Below, in pieces: positions 1-16,613 of a stretch of 16,613 nucleotides of DNA. The notes under the pieces were generated by a model, which saw nothing but the letters and a program-made list of their open reading frames with translations, was not told where the DNA came from and searched no databases. A program made the translations under genes and the position numbers. The stretch lies in NCBI GenBank assembly GCA_043819795.1, contig JBDREN010000048.1:1-16613 (forward strand), written 5' to 3'. Positions within the stretch are counted from its first letter, which is position 1, and each line of letters starts with the position of its first letter. This DNA is from Elusimicrobiota bacterium (GTDB lineage Bacteria; Elusimicrobiota; Elusimicrobia; UBA1565).

Positions 1-92
1 CGGAACAGCATGCCGTTCGCGAAAACGCAATATAATCGACTTCCAGCATCGGGCACTTGCCGAATTCTTGCTTTTATTGCGTCTTTGGCCGT

Positions 93-123
93 TCGTGTAC
101 GGGGCCATAGGCCCCGTGTACGA
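93..123. other. GC-rich hairpin (REP-like or terminator-like) downstream of the LamG gene
   Basis: TCGTGTACGGGGCC-ATA-GGCCCCGTGTACGA forms a 14-bp stem on the + strand with two G:T wobbles. There is no clear U-tract on the minus strand. Confidence 0.4.
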
Positions 124-136
124 CTCTGGGACACTA

Positions 137-2140
137 TTAATAGATTTTGTCGCCCGAGGGGGCGCAGGCCATATACGCGTTGAACTGCGGCATCGTGGCG
201 TTCTTCGTGATCAGGCGCGGGGGATTGGGGGTCTCCAGGCAGTTGTCGTGATCGTCTATGACGCCGTCATAATCCGTGTCGGGCTCGCAGGCGTCGCCGG
301 CCCCGTCCGCGTCGGCGTCCGCTTGACCGGGATTATGGTGGTCCGGACAGTTGTCGCACGCGTCTCCCGCGCCGTCCTCGGCGGGATAGCGGGCGCCCGC
401 CAGGCCGCTCTGGTAATGCAGCGCTATCTCTTCGGCGCTCAGGGCCCGGTCATAGACCGCGACCTCGTCGATGACGCCGTGCGCGGGGAATCTATGGGTC
501 GACCAGGATGGCGTCCCGCCCATGCCGATCATCAGCGGGTTTGTCCCATAGTCCCGGGGAATCCCGTGAAACGCCGCCGTTCCCTGGAGCTGCCCGTTCG
601 TGTACAAGGCCAGCACTCCGCTCACGCTGTCCACGGTCATGACGGCATGGATCCACTGCTCGGGCTCGTACGTCACGGAGCCGACCCCGAATCCCTGGTT
701 CTCGGTATTCCAGACCGTCGCCTGGATCCTCTTGGTATGCGAGTAGTCCAGCCCCGTGTGCCAGCCGGGCTTGGTGACGATCCCATAGGCCATGTCGATG
801 TAATCGGGGTCCACATTCGGGGGAACCGACAGGGGATAGAACCACGCCTCGAACGTATAATCCCCTTCTTCGGTGATATTCTCCAGGAACGAGGAGCCCT
901 CGACCGTGACGTGATCGTCGACGCCGTCGAACCGCAAGGCACCGTCGACGCGGCCGCCGGTCCAGGCCGCGCCGGCGATCGTCCCGGGGCTGCCGCCGGC
1001 GGAATCGGCCGCGGTCGTCCCGGAGCCCTCATCGAGCGTCCAGAAAGAAAGCATGCCCAGCCCAATGCTGTCGGTGTCGGCTTGGTCCGGATTGGGCGCG
1101 GCGAGGCAGTTGTCGCAGGCGTCGCCCGCCCCATCGCCGTCGCCGTCCGCCTGCCCGGGATTGTGATCGTACGGGCAATTATCGACGTCTCCGCAAAGCC
1201 CGTCATCGTCCGCGTCATTCTCGGGCGACGCGGGACAGGCGTCGCATGCGTCTCCCATCCCGTCTTGATCGGCGTCGGCCTGATCATCGTTATAAACGCC
1301 GGGGCAGTTATCGAGATAATTCGGGATGCCGTCTTCATCCGCGTCGTCCGGAACACCGCAGTAATCCACGCCGGCCAGGCTATCTTGATAATGCTCCCAG
1401 ATCTCGGCCGCTGATAAAGCCCTGTCGTAGATCGCGACCTCGTCAATGACGCCATGAGCGGGCCAGGTCCAATATCCGGCCGCTGGCGCGTGTATGCCGA
1501 TCCGTACAGGCTGTGTTCCGTAGTCTTTTAAAGTCCCGGAATATGTCGTTGATCGTACTTTTTGCCCGTTGACATACAAAGTCAGCACTTTATTCACGCT
1601 ATCCAGGGTCGAAGCGGCATGGATCCACTGCCCCGGGTCATAAGTCCTCGAATCGATGTAGATCGCGCGGTATGCCGTATCCCAGGTTTCCGCTTGTATG
1701 ACACCGGAGTATTTGTACGCCAACCCCGTGTAGTATCCGGATTTAGTGATTATCCCCGCCGCATATCCATAGGTTGTGTCATCCCCGGGCCTCGACAAAG
1801 GATAGAGCCACGCCTCAAACGTATAATCTCCTTCAGTGATGTTTTCCAAAGAAGGGGAGTTGGCTATTTCAACGTAATCGTCCACGCCGTCGAAACTCAA
1901 AGCGCCGCCATGCATGCCGGTCGTCCATGCCGCTCCGGAAACGGCCCCTGGATTGGCATCAGAGGCGTCGCTCGCGGTTGTCCCGCTTATCGCGTCGAAC
2001 TTCCAATAGGAGACCATGCCGGAAGGACATGTCGCCGGAGCTTGCGCCGCGACAAGAGATGCGAATGAAAACAAACAAGACAGAAGAATCGCGGAAGGGA
2101 CAGGCTTCCCGGAAACACTAGGCACTTTGATCATTTTCAT
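137..2140 (-). CDS. Secreted LamG-like jellyroll (x2) / thrombospondin type-3 repeat protein, probably C-terminally truncated
   Basis: Signal-peptide-like N-terminus. Two LamG-like domains (YWKFD..GTTASD...GALSFDGVDDYV...FEAW...WIHA...LYVNG...GVIDEVAIYDRALSAAEI). Several DxDxDGxGDACDNCP..NPxQ TSP3 Ca-binding repeats. GGGGT upstream of the ATG. Confidence 0.9.
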   Translation of the reverse strand: MKMIKVPSVSGKPVPSAILLSCLFSFASLVAAQAPATCPSGMVSYWKFDAISGTTASDASDANPGAVSGAAWTTGMHGGALSFDGVDDYVEIANSPSLENITEGDYTFEAWLYPLSRPGDDTTYGYAAGIITKSGYYTGLAYKYSGVIQAETWDTAYRAIYIDSRTYDPGQWIHAASTLDSVNKVLTLYVNGQKVRSTTYSGTLKDYGTQPVRIGIHAPAAGYWTWPAHGVIDEVAIYDRALSAAEIWEHYQDSLAGVDYCGVPDDADEDGIPNYLDNCPGVYNDDQADADQDGMGDACDACPASPENDADDDGLCGDVDNCPYDHNPGQADGDGDGAGDACDNCLAAPNPDQADTDSIGLGMLSFWTLDEGSGTTAADSAGGSPGTIAGAAWTGGRVDGALRFDGVDDHVTVEGSSFLENITEEGDYTFEAWFYPLSVPPNVDPDYIDMAYGIVTKPGWHTGLDYSHTKRIQATVWNTENQGFGVGSVTYEPEQWIHAVMTVDSVSGVLALYTNGQLQGTAAFHGIPRDYGTNPLMIGMGGTPSWSTHRFPAHGVIDEVAVYDRALSAEEIALHYQSGLAGARYPAEDGAGDACDNCPDHHNPGQADADADGAGDACEPDTDYDGVIDDHDNCLETPNPPRLITKNATMPQFNAYMACAPSGDKIY

Positions 2141-2374
2141 TACCCCTGCGGACAGAGCAGCTTTTCCGCCGCCAGAACAGACCTCGCGGCCGCTTCCAAA
2201 GACCCGTCAGCGACAAGATGCGGGAAGCGCCGGCTATTTCCCACCACCACCGAGTATTACGTCTCTTTAGAAGCATAACGCCAATTCGCTGACAAGTCAA
2301 TGACAGTCGCCCGACAATGATGTTGAAATAATCCTTACTGCACAAGCATAAATTACTTTGTCAGGGAACGGCAT

Positions 2375-2419
2375 CGGCGTCAGGCATTGAGTTTCTTGAG
2401 TTGTTTGAGTAACTCCGCC
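2375..2419 (+). repeat. Family B repeat (CGGCGTCAGGCA + three 9-nt TTGAGT units)
   Basis: 41/45 identical to 9949-9993. The head also recurs at 16221-16241. Confidence 0.9.
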
Positions 2420-2427
2420 GGCCGCCC

Positions 2428-2510
2428 CCCCAACTTGAAATGCAGGATTGGCATTTCAAGTCGCGTCCCTCTTCTTTAAGATGCCAATTCGGCACCTTAG
2501 AGAATTATGC
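2428..2510. repeat. Two adjacent ORF6N-type palindromes, homologous to 10163-10209 and 11061-11095
   Basis: 2428-2474 is 40/47 identical to 10163-10209 and contains an 11-bp perfect IR (ACTTGAAATGC/GCATTTCAAGT). 2477-2510 (TAAGATGCCAATTCGGCACCTTAGAGAATTATGC) closely matches 11061-11095. Confidence 0.85.
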
Positions 2511-2562
2511 TCATCCCGGGTCAGGGGGCGGGTCCAAGCGGGCTTTTATCCTCCGGATTCGA

Positions 2563-2568
2563 TAGGAT
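2563..2568 (+). promoter_or_regulatory. Putative -10 box (TAGGAT) for a leaderless SDR transcript
   Basis: TANNNT 7 nt before ATG 2576. The same geometry occurs at four other genes in the window. Confidence 0.45.
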
Positions 2569-2575
2569 ATCTCCC

Positions 2576-4138
2576 ATGGAAGAGCGTCCCGCCTCCGACG
2601 AGAAGTCCCCCAAGGCTGATCCGGAAGACCTCCGCCGGGCGACTCGCCTGCTCGAGGCGGTCGTCGAGGACCGGCGGCTTCTGGCGGCGCTTTCCGAAGA
2701 TGAGGCCATCCGCCTCAAGGCGGCCGCGGGACGCCTGTCTAGGCCGGACCGGCTCGAGCAGATGAAGACATCCAAGCGCGCCCGGACGGCGCGAAAGAGG
2801 CGTTTGGTCGAAGTGGACCGCGCCGCTCGGGGAGAGAGCCGTATCAGAAAGGTCCGGTCTGAAAGCGTGTTCCGGGCGCCCGGACGGGTCGCCGGGGATG
2901 AACGTCCGCCCTATCGCAAGCTCAACATGCCGCGCGACTGCTACGTCTGCCATTCCTCTTTCGATAAGCTGCACTTCTTCTACGACTCCATGTGCCCCGA
3001 ATGCGCCGAGTTCAATTACGACAAACGGTTCCAAACGGCGTCTTTAGAGGGCTGGACGGCCCTGATCACGGGCGGGCGGCTCAAGATCGGCCGGCAGGCG
3101 GCGCTGATGATGCTGCGCGCCGGCGCGCGGGTGGTGGTGACCACCCGCTTCCCGCATGACGCCGCCGTGCGCTACGCGGGGGAGGACGATTACGACGCCT
3201 GGTCGGACCGGCTGCATGTCCACGGGCTCGACCTCCGGCACGCGCCCAGCGTGGAGATATTCGCCCGGTACCTGGACGCGACGCTCGGCCGGCTGGATAT
3301 CATCATCAACAACGCCGCGCAGACCGTGCGCCGCCCGCCGGGCTTCTACGCCCACCTTTTGGACCGCGAGGCGCAGGCCGCCGTCGAGCTCGGGGGCAAG
3401 GCCGCCAAGCTGCTTGAAGCTCGCGAAGCCTGCCGCGCGGCATTAGGCGGCGTCCCCGCCCTCCCCGGGGCGAAGGACGTCTCCTCGGGGAAAGGGCTCC
3501 TGGCCTGGCAGGCCGGGCTAACCGGCATCGGCATCCGCGCGGCCGCGCATCTTTCGCAGATCCCCTACTCCTATGACGACGCGGCGCTGGGCGCCGATGT
3601 CTTTCCGGCCGGCCGGCTGGACGCGGATCTCCAGCAGGTGGACAAGCGGACTCACAACACCTGGCGGATGGCTCTGGGCGAGGTCCCGACCCCGGAGCTG
3701 GTCGAAACCATGCTCATCAACGCCGTGGCGCCTTTCATCCTCAACGGCAAGCTCAAGCCCTTGATGCTTCGCAACCCTACCGGCGCTCAGCATATCGTGA
3801 ATGTCTCGGCCATGGAGGGGAGCTTCTCGCGAAAGACCAAGACCGACAAGCATCCGCACACCAATATGGCCAAGGCCGCGCTCAACATGATGACGCTCAC
3901 CTCCGCCCCCGACTACTTCAAAGACGGCATCCACATGAACGCGGTCGACACGGGCTGGGTCACCGATGAGGACCCCATGCGGGACTCGCTCAGGAAGCGC
4001 GATGAGCACGACTTCGAGCCGCCCCTGGACATCGTGGACGGAGCCGCGAGGGTCTGCGACCCCTTCTTCCACGGCCGGCTCACCGGCGAGCACCTTTGGG
4101 GGAAGTTCCTGAAGGACTACCGCCCTACCGGCTGGTAA
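2576..4138 (+). CDS. Atypical short-chain dehydrogenase/reductase with N-terminal CxxC-CxxC Zn-ribbon
   Basis: ALITGGRLKIG Rossmann motif, IIINNAAQT, IVNVSAMEG, HPHTNMAKAALNM, MNAVDTGW, and CYVC...MCPEC upstream. Start moved from 2507 to ATG 2576 because 2507 lies in the repeat and a -10 box precedes 2576. Confidence 0.88.
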   Translation: MEERPASDEKSPKADPEDLRRATRLLEAVVEDRRLLAALSEDEAIRLKAAAGRLSRPDRLEQMKTSKRARTARKRRLVEVDRAARGESRIRKVRSESVFRAPGRVAGDERPPYRKLNMPRDCYVCHSSFDKLHFFYDSMCPECAEFNYDKRFQTASLEGWTALITGGRLKIGRQAALMMLRAGARVVVTTRFPHDAAVRYAGEDDYDAWSDRLHVHGLDLRHAPSVEIFARYLDATLGRLDIIINNAAQTVRRPPGFYAHLLDREAQAAVELGGKAAKLLEAREACRAALGGVPALPGAKDVSSGKGLLAWQAGLTGIGIRAAAHLSQIPYSYDDAALGADVFPAGRLDADLQQVDKRTHNTWRMALGEVPTPELVETMLINAVAPFILNGKLKPLMLRNPTGAQHIVNVSAMEGSFSRKTKTDKHPHTNMAKAALNMMTLTSAPDYFKDGIHMNAVDTGWVTDEDPMRDSLRKRDEHDFEPPLDIVDGAARVCDPFFHGRLTGEHLWGKFLKDYRPTGW

Positions 4139-9329: not shown

Positions 9330-9356
9330 GGCGTCAGGTGTTAACTTTGTTAACTA
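9330..9356 (+). repeat. Family A repeat (GGCGTCAGG TGTTAACTT TGTTAACTA)
   Basis: Exact reverse complement of 11217-11243, and over 25 bp of 13301-13325. Confidence 0.92.
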
Positions 9357-9475
9357 ACCCGGGGTGGCCGAGCTTATAGACGCCGGCGCGGGATTTGCCT
9401 AGATAGCGGGCTAGATCCTCCCAGCGGTAGCCTTGCTCCTCCGCCGCAACGACGGCCATCTTCCTGGCGGCTGTA
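9334..9475 (-). pseudogene. 3' remnant of an HTH-tailed (DnaA-C-like) protein, probably an IS200/RAYT-like Y1 transposase
   Basis: AARKMAVVAAEEQGYRWEDLARYLGKSRAGVYKL is HTH-like and runs into repeat A, ending LVNKVNT*. No HUH domain is present, so the family assignment is inference. Confidence 0.5.
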
Positions 9476-9516
9476 TTTGGCACATAAATTGCTCCATTTG
9501 GTTCAGGGGGGCTCAT

Positions 9517-9996
9517 ATGACTAAATGGAAAACGCTCTTTCTCGGCCCCGTGGTCTACGTCGTCGGGCTCGTGCTCATGCTCGCGGCGTTGGTGTCGGCC
9601 TGGAGGCTGATGCTGTTTCTCGAGCCCTACCTGCCTTCCCTGATCGCCGCGGCCGAGGTCATAGACGACCACTGGCTCTTCTGGTTCGTAATCGCGTCCC
9701 TGCCCGCCGTGACCGCGGGCTTGCTCGCCGCGCCCCCGGAAGGACCCGGTCGCTGGGCCGCGGCCTTCGGTTCGGGACTGCTCTCGACCGCGCTCCTCGT
9801 GCTGCCGGCGGCGGCGCTGGTGTGGGTCATGCTGCCGGGCTACCTGGATCATTCCGCCGGCTCGGACACTATGATGGGCACCGCGGTCATCGGGTTTTTC
9901 GCCGCCGGGATGACCATGTCCGGTTTGGGCGGCCTATGGCGTTATAAGCGGCGTCACGCATTGAGTTCTTCGAGTTGTTTGAGTAACTCCGCCTAA
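9517..9996 (+). CDS. Hypothetical 4-TM membrane protein (159 aa)
   Basis: AGGGGG SD-like site before ATG 9517 and four hydrophobic segments. The last 15 codons are encoded by repeat B. Confidence 0.7.
   Translation: MTKWKTLFLGPVVYVVGLVLMLAALVSAWRLMLFLEPYLPSLIAAAEVIDDHWLFWFVIASLPAVTAGLLAAPPEGPGRWAAAFGSGLLSTALLVLPAAALVWVMLPGYLDHSAGSDTMMGTAVIGFFAAGMTMSGLGGLWRYKRRHALSSSSCLSNSA
9949..9993 (+). repeat. Family B repeat
   Basis: CGGCGTCACGCATTGAGTTCTTCGAGTTGTTTGAGTAACTCCGCC, 41/45 identical to 2375-2419. Confidence 0.9.
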
Positions 9997-10073
9997 CGTC
10001 TCCGGGAGGGCGCCATACTTGGCGCCACCGAATCGGCGCCGACCGGCATTCTACGACTCACCCCCCAGCAAGT

Positions 10074-10092
10074 CCCCTCTGGTTAATAAAGT
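10074..10092 (-). repeat. Headless family A fragment (CCCCTCTGGTTAATAAAGT)
   Basis: Exact 19-bp match to 13504-13522 and one mismatch to 13293-13311. Confidence 0.8.
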
Positions 10093-10110
10093 CGGAACAC
10101 ATGACGCCAT

Positions 10111-10137
10111 CTTGAAGTCACAATTTGTGACTTCAAG
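10111..10137. repeat. Perfect ORF6N-type palindrome
   Basis: CTTGAAGTCACAA-T-TTGTGACTTCAAG, 13-bp arms. Confidence 0.9.
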
Positions 10138-10401
10138 TCCCAGGGCCGCGCGGCGGTCTCCGCCCCAACTTGAAATGCCAGATTGGCGCTTTAAGTCGCG
10201 CCACTCTTCGGGCGTCAGCTGGAGCATGAAATCCGGAGGGAATCTCTCCTGGTTTCTTTTTACGGCCCGGTTCAGGGCCCCGGGCGCGACTCCGTACATG
10301 CCGGCCAGATGCCGATCCAGCAGGACTCTGCGTCCGCGTATTAGGAGGATGCGGCTCTCGATCCGCTCCACGGGGATGGGGGGTCTCGTGGGCATCTTTC
10401 C

Positions 10402-10908
10402 CTACTCCCGCATATACGAGCGGAACCCCATTCTGGTTCCGGCTTCAAGTAAATGCCGCCGGGTCTCGCTAAGCCGGGCTTGCTTGAGCCCGCGCTCAAG
10501 CTGTGCGATCTTGCGGGCCAACTCCTTATGCCCAGCAATGACCTCTCGCAGCTTAACAAAGGCCCTGACGACGAAAACGCCCACCTCGATGGCTTTGGGC
10601 GAGTTAAGGACGCTGGCCGCCATGATGGCACCGTGTTCCGTGAAGGCGAAGGGTAGGGCCTTCGCGAACTTCAGCTTCTTCAGGTGGTCGCAATTTGCGA
10701 TCACCTCGGCCTTCTCGCGGGCGGAGAGCTGAAACATGAAGTCCCCGGGGAACCGGACCCGGTTGCGCTTCACCTGCTCATTCAATCGACGCGTCGGTAC
10801 CCCATAGGCCTCCGCAAGGTCGGCGTCTATGATGACCTTTTCGCCCCGGATCAGCAAAATCCGTTGCTGAATCCCGCCGATTTTTACCAGAGCCTTTGAA
10901 GGGGCCAC
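10402..10908 (-). CDS. ORF6N-domain (KilA-N-like) DNA-binding protein
   Basis: RILLIRGEKVIIDADLAEAYGVPTRRLNEQVKRNRVRFPGDFMFQLS...VIANCDHL...LPFAFTEHGAIMAASVLNSPKAIEVGVFVVRAFVKLRE...ELARKIAQLE...RMGF. GTG 10908 is the chosen start and is uncertain. Confidence 0.88.
   Translation of the reverse strand: MAPSKALVKIGGIQQRILLIRGEKVIIDADLAEAYGVPTRRLNEQVKRNRVRFPGDFMFQLSAREKAEVIANCDHLKKLKFAKALPFAFTEHGAIMAASVLNSPKAIEVGVFVVRAFVKLREVIAGHKELARKIAQLERGLKQARLSETRRHLLEAGTRMGFRSYMRE
10682..10706. repeat. ORF6N-internal palindrome
   Basis: AGGTGGTCGCAA-T-TTGCGATCACCT, 12-bp arms with one mismatch. Encodes VIANCDH. Confidence 0.8.
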
Positions 10909-10977
10909 GTTTTCAGAATCCCTCACCGCGGCGCTCGGTGAACGCAAGCGGCATGCGGCTCGAGAGTTTGAGGGCCT

Positions 10978-11007
10978 GGAGGTGGTCACTCATTTGTGAC
11001 CACCTCC
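10978..11007. repeat. ORF6N-type palindrome upstream of the ORF6N gene
   Basis: GGAGGTGGTCAC-TCATTT-GTGACCACCTCC, 12-bp perfect arms. Arms resemble 10682-10706. Confidence 0.85.
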
Positions 11008-11061
11008 TCGCGCGCCTTCTCGGCGACCATTAGCATACGCTCATCCATCCGCCAGGTTTCT

Positions 11062-11082
11062 AAGGTGCCAATTTGGCACCTT
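11062..11082. repeat. ORF6N-type palindrome
   Basis: AAGGTGCCAA-T-TTGGCACCTT, 10-bp perfect arms. Homologous copy at 2478-2498. Confidence 0.85.
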
Positions 11083-11216
11083 TAAAGAATTATGCGCCCC
11101 GCTTGTACGAATGAGAGGCTCGATCGGTTCCCGCTGACGTCTTGCCGTTCGCGGAGGACCCGAAGATGGGATTAGATGGCTTCATGAGCCGCTGCCGGCC
11201 CGATGCCTCCAGCGAC

Positions 11217-11244
11217 TAGTTAACAAAGTTAACACCTGACGCCG
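11217..11244 (-). repeat. Family A repeat
   Basis: TAGTTAACAAAGTTAACACCTGACGCCG; 26 bp identical to 13301-13326. Confidence 0.92.
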
Positions 11245-13285: not shown

Positions 13286-13326
13286 GACCGGGCCCCTCTG
13301 GTTAACAAAGTTAACACCTGACGCCG
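13286..13326 (-). repeat. Family A repeat with extended inner flank
   Basis: GACCGGGCCCCTCTG-GTTAACAAAGTTAACACCTGACGCCG, starting 13 nt after the symporter stop. Confidence 0.92.
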
Positions 13327-13496
13327 CTCCTCTTGGCGCTCCGACTTGGGCTGGTCGTTCGATGGGAGCGCTTTGTATCCTTCACCCTGAAACCAAGCTT
13401 CACTCGCAGAGATTGATGCCCCGCTACCCCGATATATACGACTTACCTTCGTGTAAGTTCCCCCCGAAATCGCTTGAGTCTCGTTTTCGGGGGCTA

Positions 13497-13522
13497 GACC
13501 GGACCCCTCTGGTTAATAAAGT
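13497..13522 (-). repeat. Headless family A fragment abutting repeat C
   Basis: 24/26 identical to 13286-13311. Confidence 0.82.
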
Positions 13523-13524
13523 GG

Positions 13525-13593
13525 ATCTCAGGATTGCGGGGGCGAGGCGTGGTCAAAAGTCAAACAAGTCACAAAAGTCATAGCCTGTCACCG
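13525..13593 (-). repeat. Family C repeat (CGGTGACAGGCT + 9-nt TGACTT units on the minus strand)
   Basis: 13525-13587 is 62/63 identical to 16282-16344. Confidence 0.93.
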
Positions 13594-16220: not shown

Positions 16221-16241
16221 CGGCGTCATGCATTGAGTTCT
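16221..16241 (+). repeat. Truncated family B repeat (head plus one unit)
   Basis: CGGCGTCATGCATTGAGTTCT, 20/21 identical to 9949-9969. Confidence 0.8.
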
Positions 16242-16253
16242 GTCTCGGAGTCT

Positions 16254-16345
16254 CGGTGTCAGGCTATGACTTTTGTGACTTATCTCAGGATTGCGGCGGC
16301 GAGGCGTGGTCAAAAGTCAAACAAGTCACAAAAGTCATAGCCTGA
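16254..16345. repeat. Inverted doublet of family C repeats (REPIN-like)
   Basis: Perfect 23-bp IR: TCAGGCTATGACTTTTGTGACTT (16259-16281) and AAGTCACAAAAGTCATAGCCTGA (16323-16345). Confidence 0.9.
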
Positions 16346-16613
16346 TAATCATATAGAGATCCCCTCCCACAGGTTGTATTGTTTCGTTGCAAGACGAACA
16401 TTCCAACCCAAGGAGGGGACTGATGAAATTATACGTAGGAATCGACCTGCATTCCAACAACAGCGTGCTGGTAATCTTGGATGAACATGATCGCATCGTA
16501 TACGAGCGGCGTCTACGAAATGAACTGCCGCTTATTTTGACGGAGCTGGCGCCGTACCGAGAGAAGGTCGAGGCGATAGCCGTGGAGTCAACGTACAATT
16601 GGTACTGGCTCGT
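16346..16613 (+). mobile_element. IS110-family insertion sequence, left end (runs off the window)
   Basis: Similarity to repeat C stops abruptly at CCTG(A), the sequence becomes AT-richer, and a transposase starts about 77 nt later. The exact end is uncertain by 1-2 nt. Confidence 0.85.
16423..16613 (+). CDS. IS110-family transposase, N-terminal DEDD RuvC-like domain (partial; absent from the ORF track)
   Basis: MKLYVGIDLHSNNSVLVILDEHDRIVYERRLRNELPLILTELAPYREKVEAIAVESTYNWYWL contains the GIDLH and AVEST motifs. AAGGAGGGG SD site. Confidence 0.93.
   Translation, partial: MKLYVGIDLHSNNSVLVILDEHDRIVYERRLRNELPLILTELAPYREKVEAIAVESTYNWYWL

Follow-up and report, generated by a model that had tools for sequence, protein, structure and literature searches.

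How did a short intergenic stretch come to resemble three separate parts of an ORF6N gene cluster on the same contig, and is it a mobile element? The window analysed here, which is the entire 16.6-kb contig of a 5-Mb draft genome (66.8% GC), carries this stretch between a divergent LamG/TSP3 gene and SDR gene. A first-pass annotation had read positions 2375-2510 as a contracted form of the ORF6N module at 9949-11095, and more specifically as a mobile, MITE-like derivative. The homology to the module and the contracted form of an ORF6N cluster withstand closer analysis, whereas the mobile derivative does not. The stretch, which spans 2375-2527 (hereafter the relic), has one copy in the genome and combines two fragments of ORF6N coding sequence with a single TIRYT terminal repeat (TIR). 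It is probably the remains, now in decay, of a sister of the ORF6N cluster nearby, shrunk by deletions that spared its hairpins.

Homology between the relic and the ORF6N module

BLASTN searches against the genome bear out all three matches between the loci: piece 1 (2375-2419 against 9949-9993) agrees at 41/45 positions (E 2e-11), piece 2 (2428-2474 against 10163-10209) at 40/47 (E 3e-9) and piece 3 (2477-2510 against 11061-11095) at 31/35 with one gap (E 8e-5). The pieces are colinear and co-oriented at both loci, with no intervening sequence retained. The homologies exceed these bounds: the alignment of piece 2 starts at 2416 (48/59), and piece 3, itself ORF6N coding sequence, reaches 2527, past the end of the module's match, so that the unit extends over approximately 2375-2527. 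A BLASTN comparison of the two loci recovered no common outer flanks. The CATAATTC flank, on the other hand, is common to the relic and palindrome P5 of the module, and is present in 0/46 ORF6N genes. The entire 5-Mb genome contains eight main-type ORF6N palindromes, of which five lie inside the window, as do all four of the non-genic ones (shuffled controls: 0), a co-occurrence far beyond chance. As judged from their sequences, the relic and the module are likely to have a local common origin.

The relic contains two ORF6N coding remnants

In 39/39 of the first-collected ORF6N genes, one coding position holds an odd palindrome of 25 bp, in which 10-11 of the 11 possible pairs form. A nucleotide profile built from 44 intact genes (nhmmer) detects two minus-strand ORF6N remnants in the relic and gives no matches in a reversed control. 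The type B remnant at 2415-2474 (model 259-318, 12.7 bits) preserves the variable segment LKCQ..ISSWGG and a hairpin at 2433-2461 with 9/11 pairs, while the type A remnant at 2469-2527 (model 247-305, 19.4 bits, genome E 1.5e-4) reads LT..E..SLRC.IG.LK and has a hairpin at 2474-2502 with 8/11 pairs. The two remnants overlap by 6 nt at their joint (2469-2474), and the type B remnant overlaps the TIR flank by 5 nt (2415-2419). Piece 3, previously taken for an upstream cis site, is accordingly a second ORF6N coding fragment, as both the nhmmer score and the position-weight matrix (PWM) score of its flank indicate. The related proposals that the relic keeps only cis sites and that its junctions lie at palindromes also fail: the relic lacks the ORF6N promoter motif and retains coding flanks, and its joints fall outside the palindromes, sparing these.

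In our own genome and all the loci collected, the closest match of piece 2 is gene B of the module (48/59; runner-up 44/59). Seven of their 11 differences fall at third codon positions, six of them synonymous (P=0.039, in a test confounded by the palindrome symmetry); this bias suggests that piece 2 and gene B diverged while still coding. Piece 3 finds its best ungapped match in an ORF6N gene of another genus (genome G016, 49/60). On the gene PWM, the 15 nt of its 5' flank come to 14.5 bits, a value typical of genes (median 13.4) and attained by 1e-5 of random sites, whereas the equivalent in the module scores -7.2 bits, a score reached by 6% of random sites, because a promoter is fused there. 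Piece 3 thus retains five codons that are absent from the module, and hence the stretch cannot derive from the present-day module, an origin also contradicted by its TIR, which is closer to other copies. The downstream flank of piece 3 also differs from that of P5. An inversion was considered for the type A hairpin, as its reverse match between relic and module is 87% over 31 nt; the centre of the hairpin has the same orientation in both. With 8 and 9 of 11 pairs the relic hairpins are among the poorest seen (9 or fewer pairs occur in 10/142 palindromes of relatives), and the type B hairpin has lost one near-invariant half-site C. The relic therefore looks released from constraint, and it is likely that the constraint on the hairpins was relaxed in this copy.

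Piece 1 belongs to a large TIR family

Piece 1 contains an unpaired TIR of the TIRYT/RAYT family, subtype B (2376-2414, plus strand), with a GGCGTCAG end and an AT-rich tract of 9-bp periodicity. A profile made from 66 seeds recovers 174 sites of this family in the genome, against 0 in one shuffled genome; 88 of the 174 are paired as inward dimers, the consensus is GGCGTCAGG, and at least 14 close copies of piece 1 are among those listed. All six Y1-transposase loci of the genome have a TIR within 1.5 kb, and matched inward pairs enclose four of them (C140, C96, C102 and C198). The relic's subtype brackets the Y1 transposase gene at C140 (10328, plus, and 11270, minus; 27/27), whose 276-aa product scores 24 bits with PF01797 (cut-off 23) and 74.6 bits with NF047646, below the cut-off of 80. 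By sequence, piece 1 fits the TIRtron/TIRYT class, whose TIR repeat families were described by Di Nocera et al. 2013 (PMC3733652) and whose transposases correspond to the TnpA-Y1 subclass 2.1 of Quentin et al. 2018 (PMC6006769). Like the TIRtrons described there, the family has ends resembling GGGGWSAS, flanks Y1 transposase genes as inward pairs, and is dispersed as single TIRs and dimers. Unlike them, it is large, its consensus end is GG(C/T/G)GTCAG, and one of its TIRs is fused to ORF6N remnants, giving a relic with a single TIR. A large TIRtron repeat family is hereby added to a class rarely treated in the literature searched.

The first-pass annotation had named independent occurrence of the pieces elsewhere in the genome as evidence against a contracted unit, and this is partly the case, since piece 1 is found on its own across the genome (the 174 family sites). 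Over its 39-nt core the relic TIR agrees with copies at C166 (38/39), C140 (37/39) and C241 (36/39), and with the module at only 35/39; the module-specific part of the TIR region is the 5-nt inner flank only.

The module has undergone collapses of its own

The interval 9949-11095 is not the natural unit it was taken for, as the sole unit bounded by perfect inverted repeats is 9330-11243, delimited by TTAAC-subtype TIRs at 9330-9356 (plus) and 11217-11243 (minus; 27/27), the latter ~110 bp upstream of the module promoter. Read on the minus strand, this second TIR is followed by a promoter motif that starts at 11131 and is fused almost directly to P5 (11055-11131 by profile and PWM). P5 itself (11058-11086) is what remains of a type A gene and carries an insertion of 1 nt. 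Next comes P4 (10978-11007), which with its flanks forms a frameshifted C-type ORF6N remnant (10933-11030) recognizable by translation and hairpin; it ends in an AFTE motif, the flank match alone being weak (0.5 bits). ORF6N gene C (10402-10892), with palindrome P3 at 10682-10706, is apparently intact (PF10543 E 4.5e-27; PADLOC PDC-S05 E 1e-48). Gene B (10151-10454; PF10543 E 9e-21; model 27-317) has the promoter motif GGAAC-N17-TCGTA at 10440 and is cut ~17 nt past its palindrome P2 (10168-10196). It is followed by P1, a bare remnant of a further ORF6N type (10105-10140; model 270-305, 13.8 bits; 11/11 pairs), and by a degenerate, dimer-like TIR (10067-10108, minus) whose outer end is fused to P1. 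This TIR faces the plus-strand subtype-B TIR at 9950-9993, which the TIR profile and the alignment delineate together with the 5-nt flank common to the relic. Read in this way, the module carries three collapsed remnants and is itself a product of collapse.

The 1914-bp unit at 9330-11243, with its perfect 27-bp TIRs, encloses a small hydrophobic ORF (~9517-9948) and the ORF6N cluster, and has no transposase; a cargo pair resembling it is found at C150:1518-2489. Both are possible candidates for non-autonomous TIRtrons with passengers. The motif GGAAC-N16/17-TCGTA, which resembles an ECF sigma promoter, occurs at 24 sites (e.g. window 10440 and 11131, C140:10367 and C42:2236) and precedes ORF6N genes, the TIRYT gene at C140, an SSB-like gene and a multicopy 130-aa ORF. 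The presence of one motif before these various genes suggests that they form a common regulon.

Elsewhere in the window, the minus strand of 13298-13525 shows a TIR fragment, an ORF6N-type promoter motif (13424-13477, 3 bits), a stub resembling the ORF6N C-terminus ('LGF') and a second TIR, and is possibly a further collapsed ORF6N gene that lacks a hairpin. Near-identical TIR half-dimers at 13525-13593 and 16222-16349 (62/63) bracket an RCC1-repeat gene. The second dimer (16222-16349) is split by an element that contains the start of a transposase-like ORF (16387-16613; this fragment has no Pfam match), and the TGATAATCAT junction of the element also follows TIRs at C174 and C202.

A size series of ORF6N remnants in relatives

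ORF6N is present in 57/61 genomes, with 1-13 copies each. The size series of modules that the first-pass annotation had anticipated in relatives does exist. It is centred on the coding palindrome: at 132 loci outside the present genome, genes account for 58 palindromes, partial genes for 22 and remnants of 45-99 nt for 20, the other 42 being bare, though many of these loci were fetched through the palindrome or symmetric pattern, which biases the proportions and inflates the symmetry. Several loci show colinear collapses, such as promoter, palindrome and C-terminus in L023 (model 22-74, 267-323 and 519-589), model 181-341 plus 515-589 in L128, and model 29-105 plus 270-407 in L131. Two others (L117 and L121) consist of promoter and hairpin remnant, and L100 has a promoter and two different hairpins with no gene. 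This series indicates that the genes shrink onto their palindromes.

Searching 17 family genomes with a protein profile, with no selection for palindromes, gave 126 matches. Of these, 55 partial ones were used, five pieces at contig ends and one nearly full match being set aside; at least four of the 55 come within 150 nt of the end of a contig, and kin make the breakpoint counts non-independent. Breakpoints of the partial copies cluster just after the palindrome: 19/35 of the 3' ends or shifts fall at model 67-88, immediately past the palindrome (62-70). In all, 22/60 breakpoints fall at model positions 59-88, against 13.1 expected (nominal P 0.007, given the non-independence of kin), and 10/12 internal fragments span the palindrome, against 6.0 expected. 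It is likely that the shrinkage of ORF6N genes proceeds by microhomology deletion.

Coupling of TIRs to ORF6N as a general rule was rejected, as TIRs of the type seen in our genome are near-absent from the ORF6N loci of relatives (2 PWM hits in 126 loci, whose TIRs may differ). A generic TIR search at these loci gave 1 hit in 269 kb. The TIR thus appears to be a local addition.

Arrays of two to five different ORF6N-type palindromes occur beside genes in relatives (L089:1318-1526, L092:1500-1597, L107:715-1107 and L079:254-316), some of the heterotypic palindromes standing head to head with no spacer. Two tandem palindromes within coding sequence are seen in the L058 ORF6N gene and at L092:1830-1866, and L018 has an identical palindrome copy 565 bp upstream of its gene. 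By eye, some ORF6N genes lie just downstream of tRNA-like sequences (C32:16050-16130, C107:4100-4125 and L117); tRNA-adjacent positions are typical of island insertion sites.

Origin of the relic

The reading that we consider probable starts from an ancestral cluster in which a type A gene, a type B gene and a TIR followed one another in tandem; two local copies of this cluster would have diverged while both were still coding. Microhomology deletions would then have stripped the promoter, the N-termini and the C-termini from the relic copy, while the module would have undergone separate collapses that produced P5, P4, P1 and the truncated gene B. The palindromes may, more tentatively, have been kept as useful or bound DNA sites (e.g. 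bound by ORF6N proteins), and perhaps also since breaks fall beside them. A sister cluster is indicated by the closeness of piece 2 to gene B, by the confinement of all four non-genic palindromes to the window, and by the CATAATTC flank that ORF6N genes do not share. The overlaps at the two joints, together with the colinear collapsed genes and the breakpoint excess in relatives, speak for deletion as the process. Against this origin count that neither an intermediate of the exact relic nor an empty site was found, that piece 3 has its best match in another genus and a flank unlike that of P5, that three copies elsewhere match the TIR core better than the module's copy does, and that the outer flanks are unshared.

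Plain slippage does not account for the retention of the hairpins, since palindrome-stimulated deletion of the classical kind removes them; the likeliest reason why they were spared is selection for a DNA site that is bound or processed. Palindromes are in any case break-prone (PMC7999016).

A less probable alternative is that hairpin-centred ORF6N fragments of 30-90 nt are copied or excised and pasted side by side and beside TIRs, and that the relic is an array so assembled. The HUH-type TIRYT transposase of the genome would be a possible agent of this process. The flankless arrays L089 and L092 and the identical copy in L018 fit such copying as well as they fit deletion; in the same vein, 5/101 genomes have flankless head-to-head heterotypic palindromes upstream of ORF6N promoters, and L058 has its two palindromes in one frame. 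The homology of relic and module begins exactly at the outer end of the TIR, the piece 2 match ends beside a TIR-end-like GGCGTCAG in gene B (10211), and P1 is fused to a TIR end. Yet both relic fragments have long in-frame coding flanks and are co-oriented in the order of the module, and sites resembling TIRs are very rare at the ORF6N loci of relatives, where remnants abound. Moreover, the 5' ends of these remnants (model 220-265) match those of the relic, and so TIRYT is not needed to produce them.

We regard as rather unlikely a further reading, in which ORF6N clusters are self-archiving: new palindrome-type paralogues would be added, old ones stripped to their hairpins and the arrays kept as a library, the relic being an archive moved from the cluster. 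If true, the arrays might offer sites for binding, act as decoys or donate cassettes to the variable segment, and the co-regulated HUH (TIRYT) transposase with its common promoter motif might handle them.

It is still less likely that the relic is a regulatory island whose two hairpins are maintained operators for ORF6N control of the divergent LamG and SDR genes. The relic does have divergent starts on either side (2140 and ~2576) and a weak sigma-70-like site (2289-2318) upstream of it, and its strand folds with a z of -2.6; the ORF6N model, for its part, weakly resembles DNA-binding folds of the Dachshund and Mbp1 type (Z 6.2 and 5.0). However, operators under maintenance would hardly be among the most degenerate hairpins seen, with the near-invariant C lost in type B, and no such sequence lies upstream of 11 SDR orthologues. 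The SDR gene is present in 44/61 genomes; the 11 orthologue loci, some with short flanks, give no BLASTN match to window 1-2600, are not syntenic with LamG, and have no match to it by TBLASTN. Neither a terminator at the relic nor an Rfam match (E<=1) in 2100-2700 was found.

Evidence on mobility comes from several searches. BLASTN finds one copy of the relic in its own genome and matches (E<=0.01) in 29/101 genomes of the order, with no two relic pieces joined in the 100 others. No target-site duplication was found at the relic, whose flanks are unrelated, and no second TIR near its right end, so that it has no MITE-type pair of terminal repeats. In three sequencing runs (best share 0.14) the contigs are scattered pieces with no relic or module joint among the joints listed; one 233-nt contig ends at the TIR start. 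A MITE-like, non-autonomous miniature of a mobile ORF6N module is very improbable: it could account for a start at the outer end of a TIR next to unrelated flank, for the cognate transposase gene at C140, for TIR-bounded cargo units such as 9330-11243 and that at C150, and for a GGGTCAGG motif at the right end (2518-2525), but this motif is ordinary ORF6N coding sequence (Leu-Thr codons), the relic keeps sequence that the module lacks, and the lone TIR, single copy and absent target-site duplication all stand against it.

Functional significance and relationship to other repeats

The ORF6N proteins of the window match the PADLOC candidate defence family PDC-S05, and pieces 2 and 3 represent parts of genes of this kind (PF10543), two of which lie in the module. 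One PDC-S05 member is reported to reduce phage plating (bioRxiv 2024.09.26.614923); unlike the proteins of the window, that member has a RhuM domain and not ORF6N. In the predicted ORF6N structure (pLDDT 76), the segment encoded by the palindrome falls at the end of a helix and in a flexible loop. No Foldseek match reached E<=0.001, and the best VIA-align Z of ~6 is within the range of common arrangements; the model resembles the Dachshund/Mbp1 DNA-binding folds only weakly. Neither the coding palindrome nor its remnants is treated in the titles and abstract openings of the literature searched.

The relic itself is probably dead. It nevertheless explains the source of free-standing ORF6N palindromes, namely remnants that still have in-frame coding flanks, and relatives offer a continuous gradation in size between the gene and the bare hairpin. 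As deletions that keep hairpins reverse the usual expectation, the palindrome is arguably a functional DNA element, and for a widespread candidate defence family this becomes testable through binding, cleavage and deletion spectra.

Bacterial MITEs are non-coding, multicopy elements of 70-300 bp with 15-30 bp TIRs (PMC3733652). At ~150 bp, with frameshifted fragments only, the relic has their size and lack of coding capacity, and it shares with them hairpins and, probably, an origin by internal deletion. Unlike MITEs it retains internal coding hairpins instead of both ends, is single-copy and has no target-site duplication. With REP/BIME and REPIN arrays, which are accompanied by RAYT, it has in common an intergenic cluster of short hairpins and an HUH transposase in the genome; unlike those described, its hairpins originate within a protein-coding gene, have coding flanks and represent several types of odd palindrome, each of 25 bp. 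A REP element (GTAG/CGTC) was rejected, as no GTAG foot lies beside either hairpin and the eight genome palindromes are all different. Elsewhere in the genome, C128:440-784 is a 345-bp collapsed TIRtron, a miniature of the element at C96 with both TIRs and the 5' part of the transposase, and is a better MITE-like candidate of this genome than the relic.
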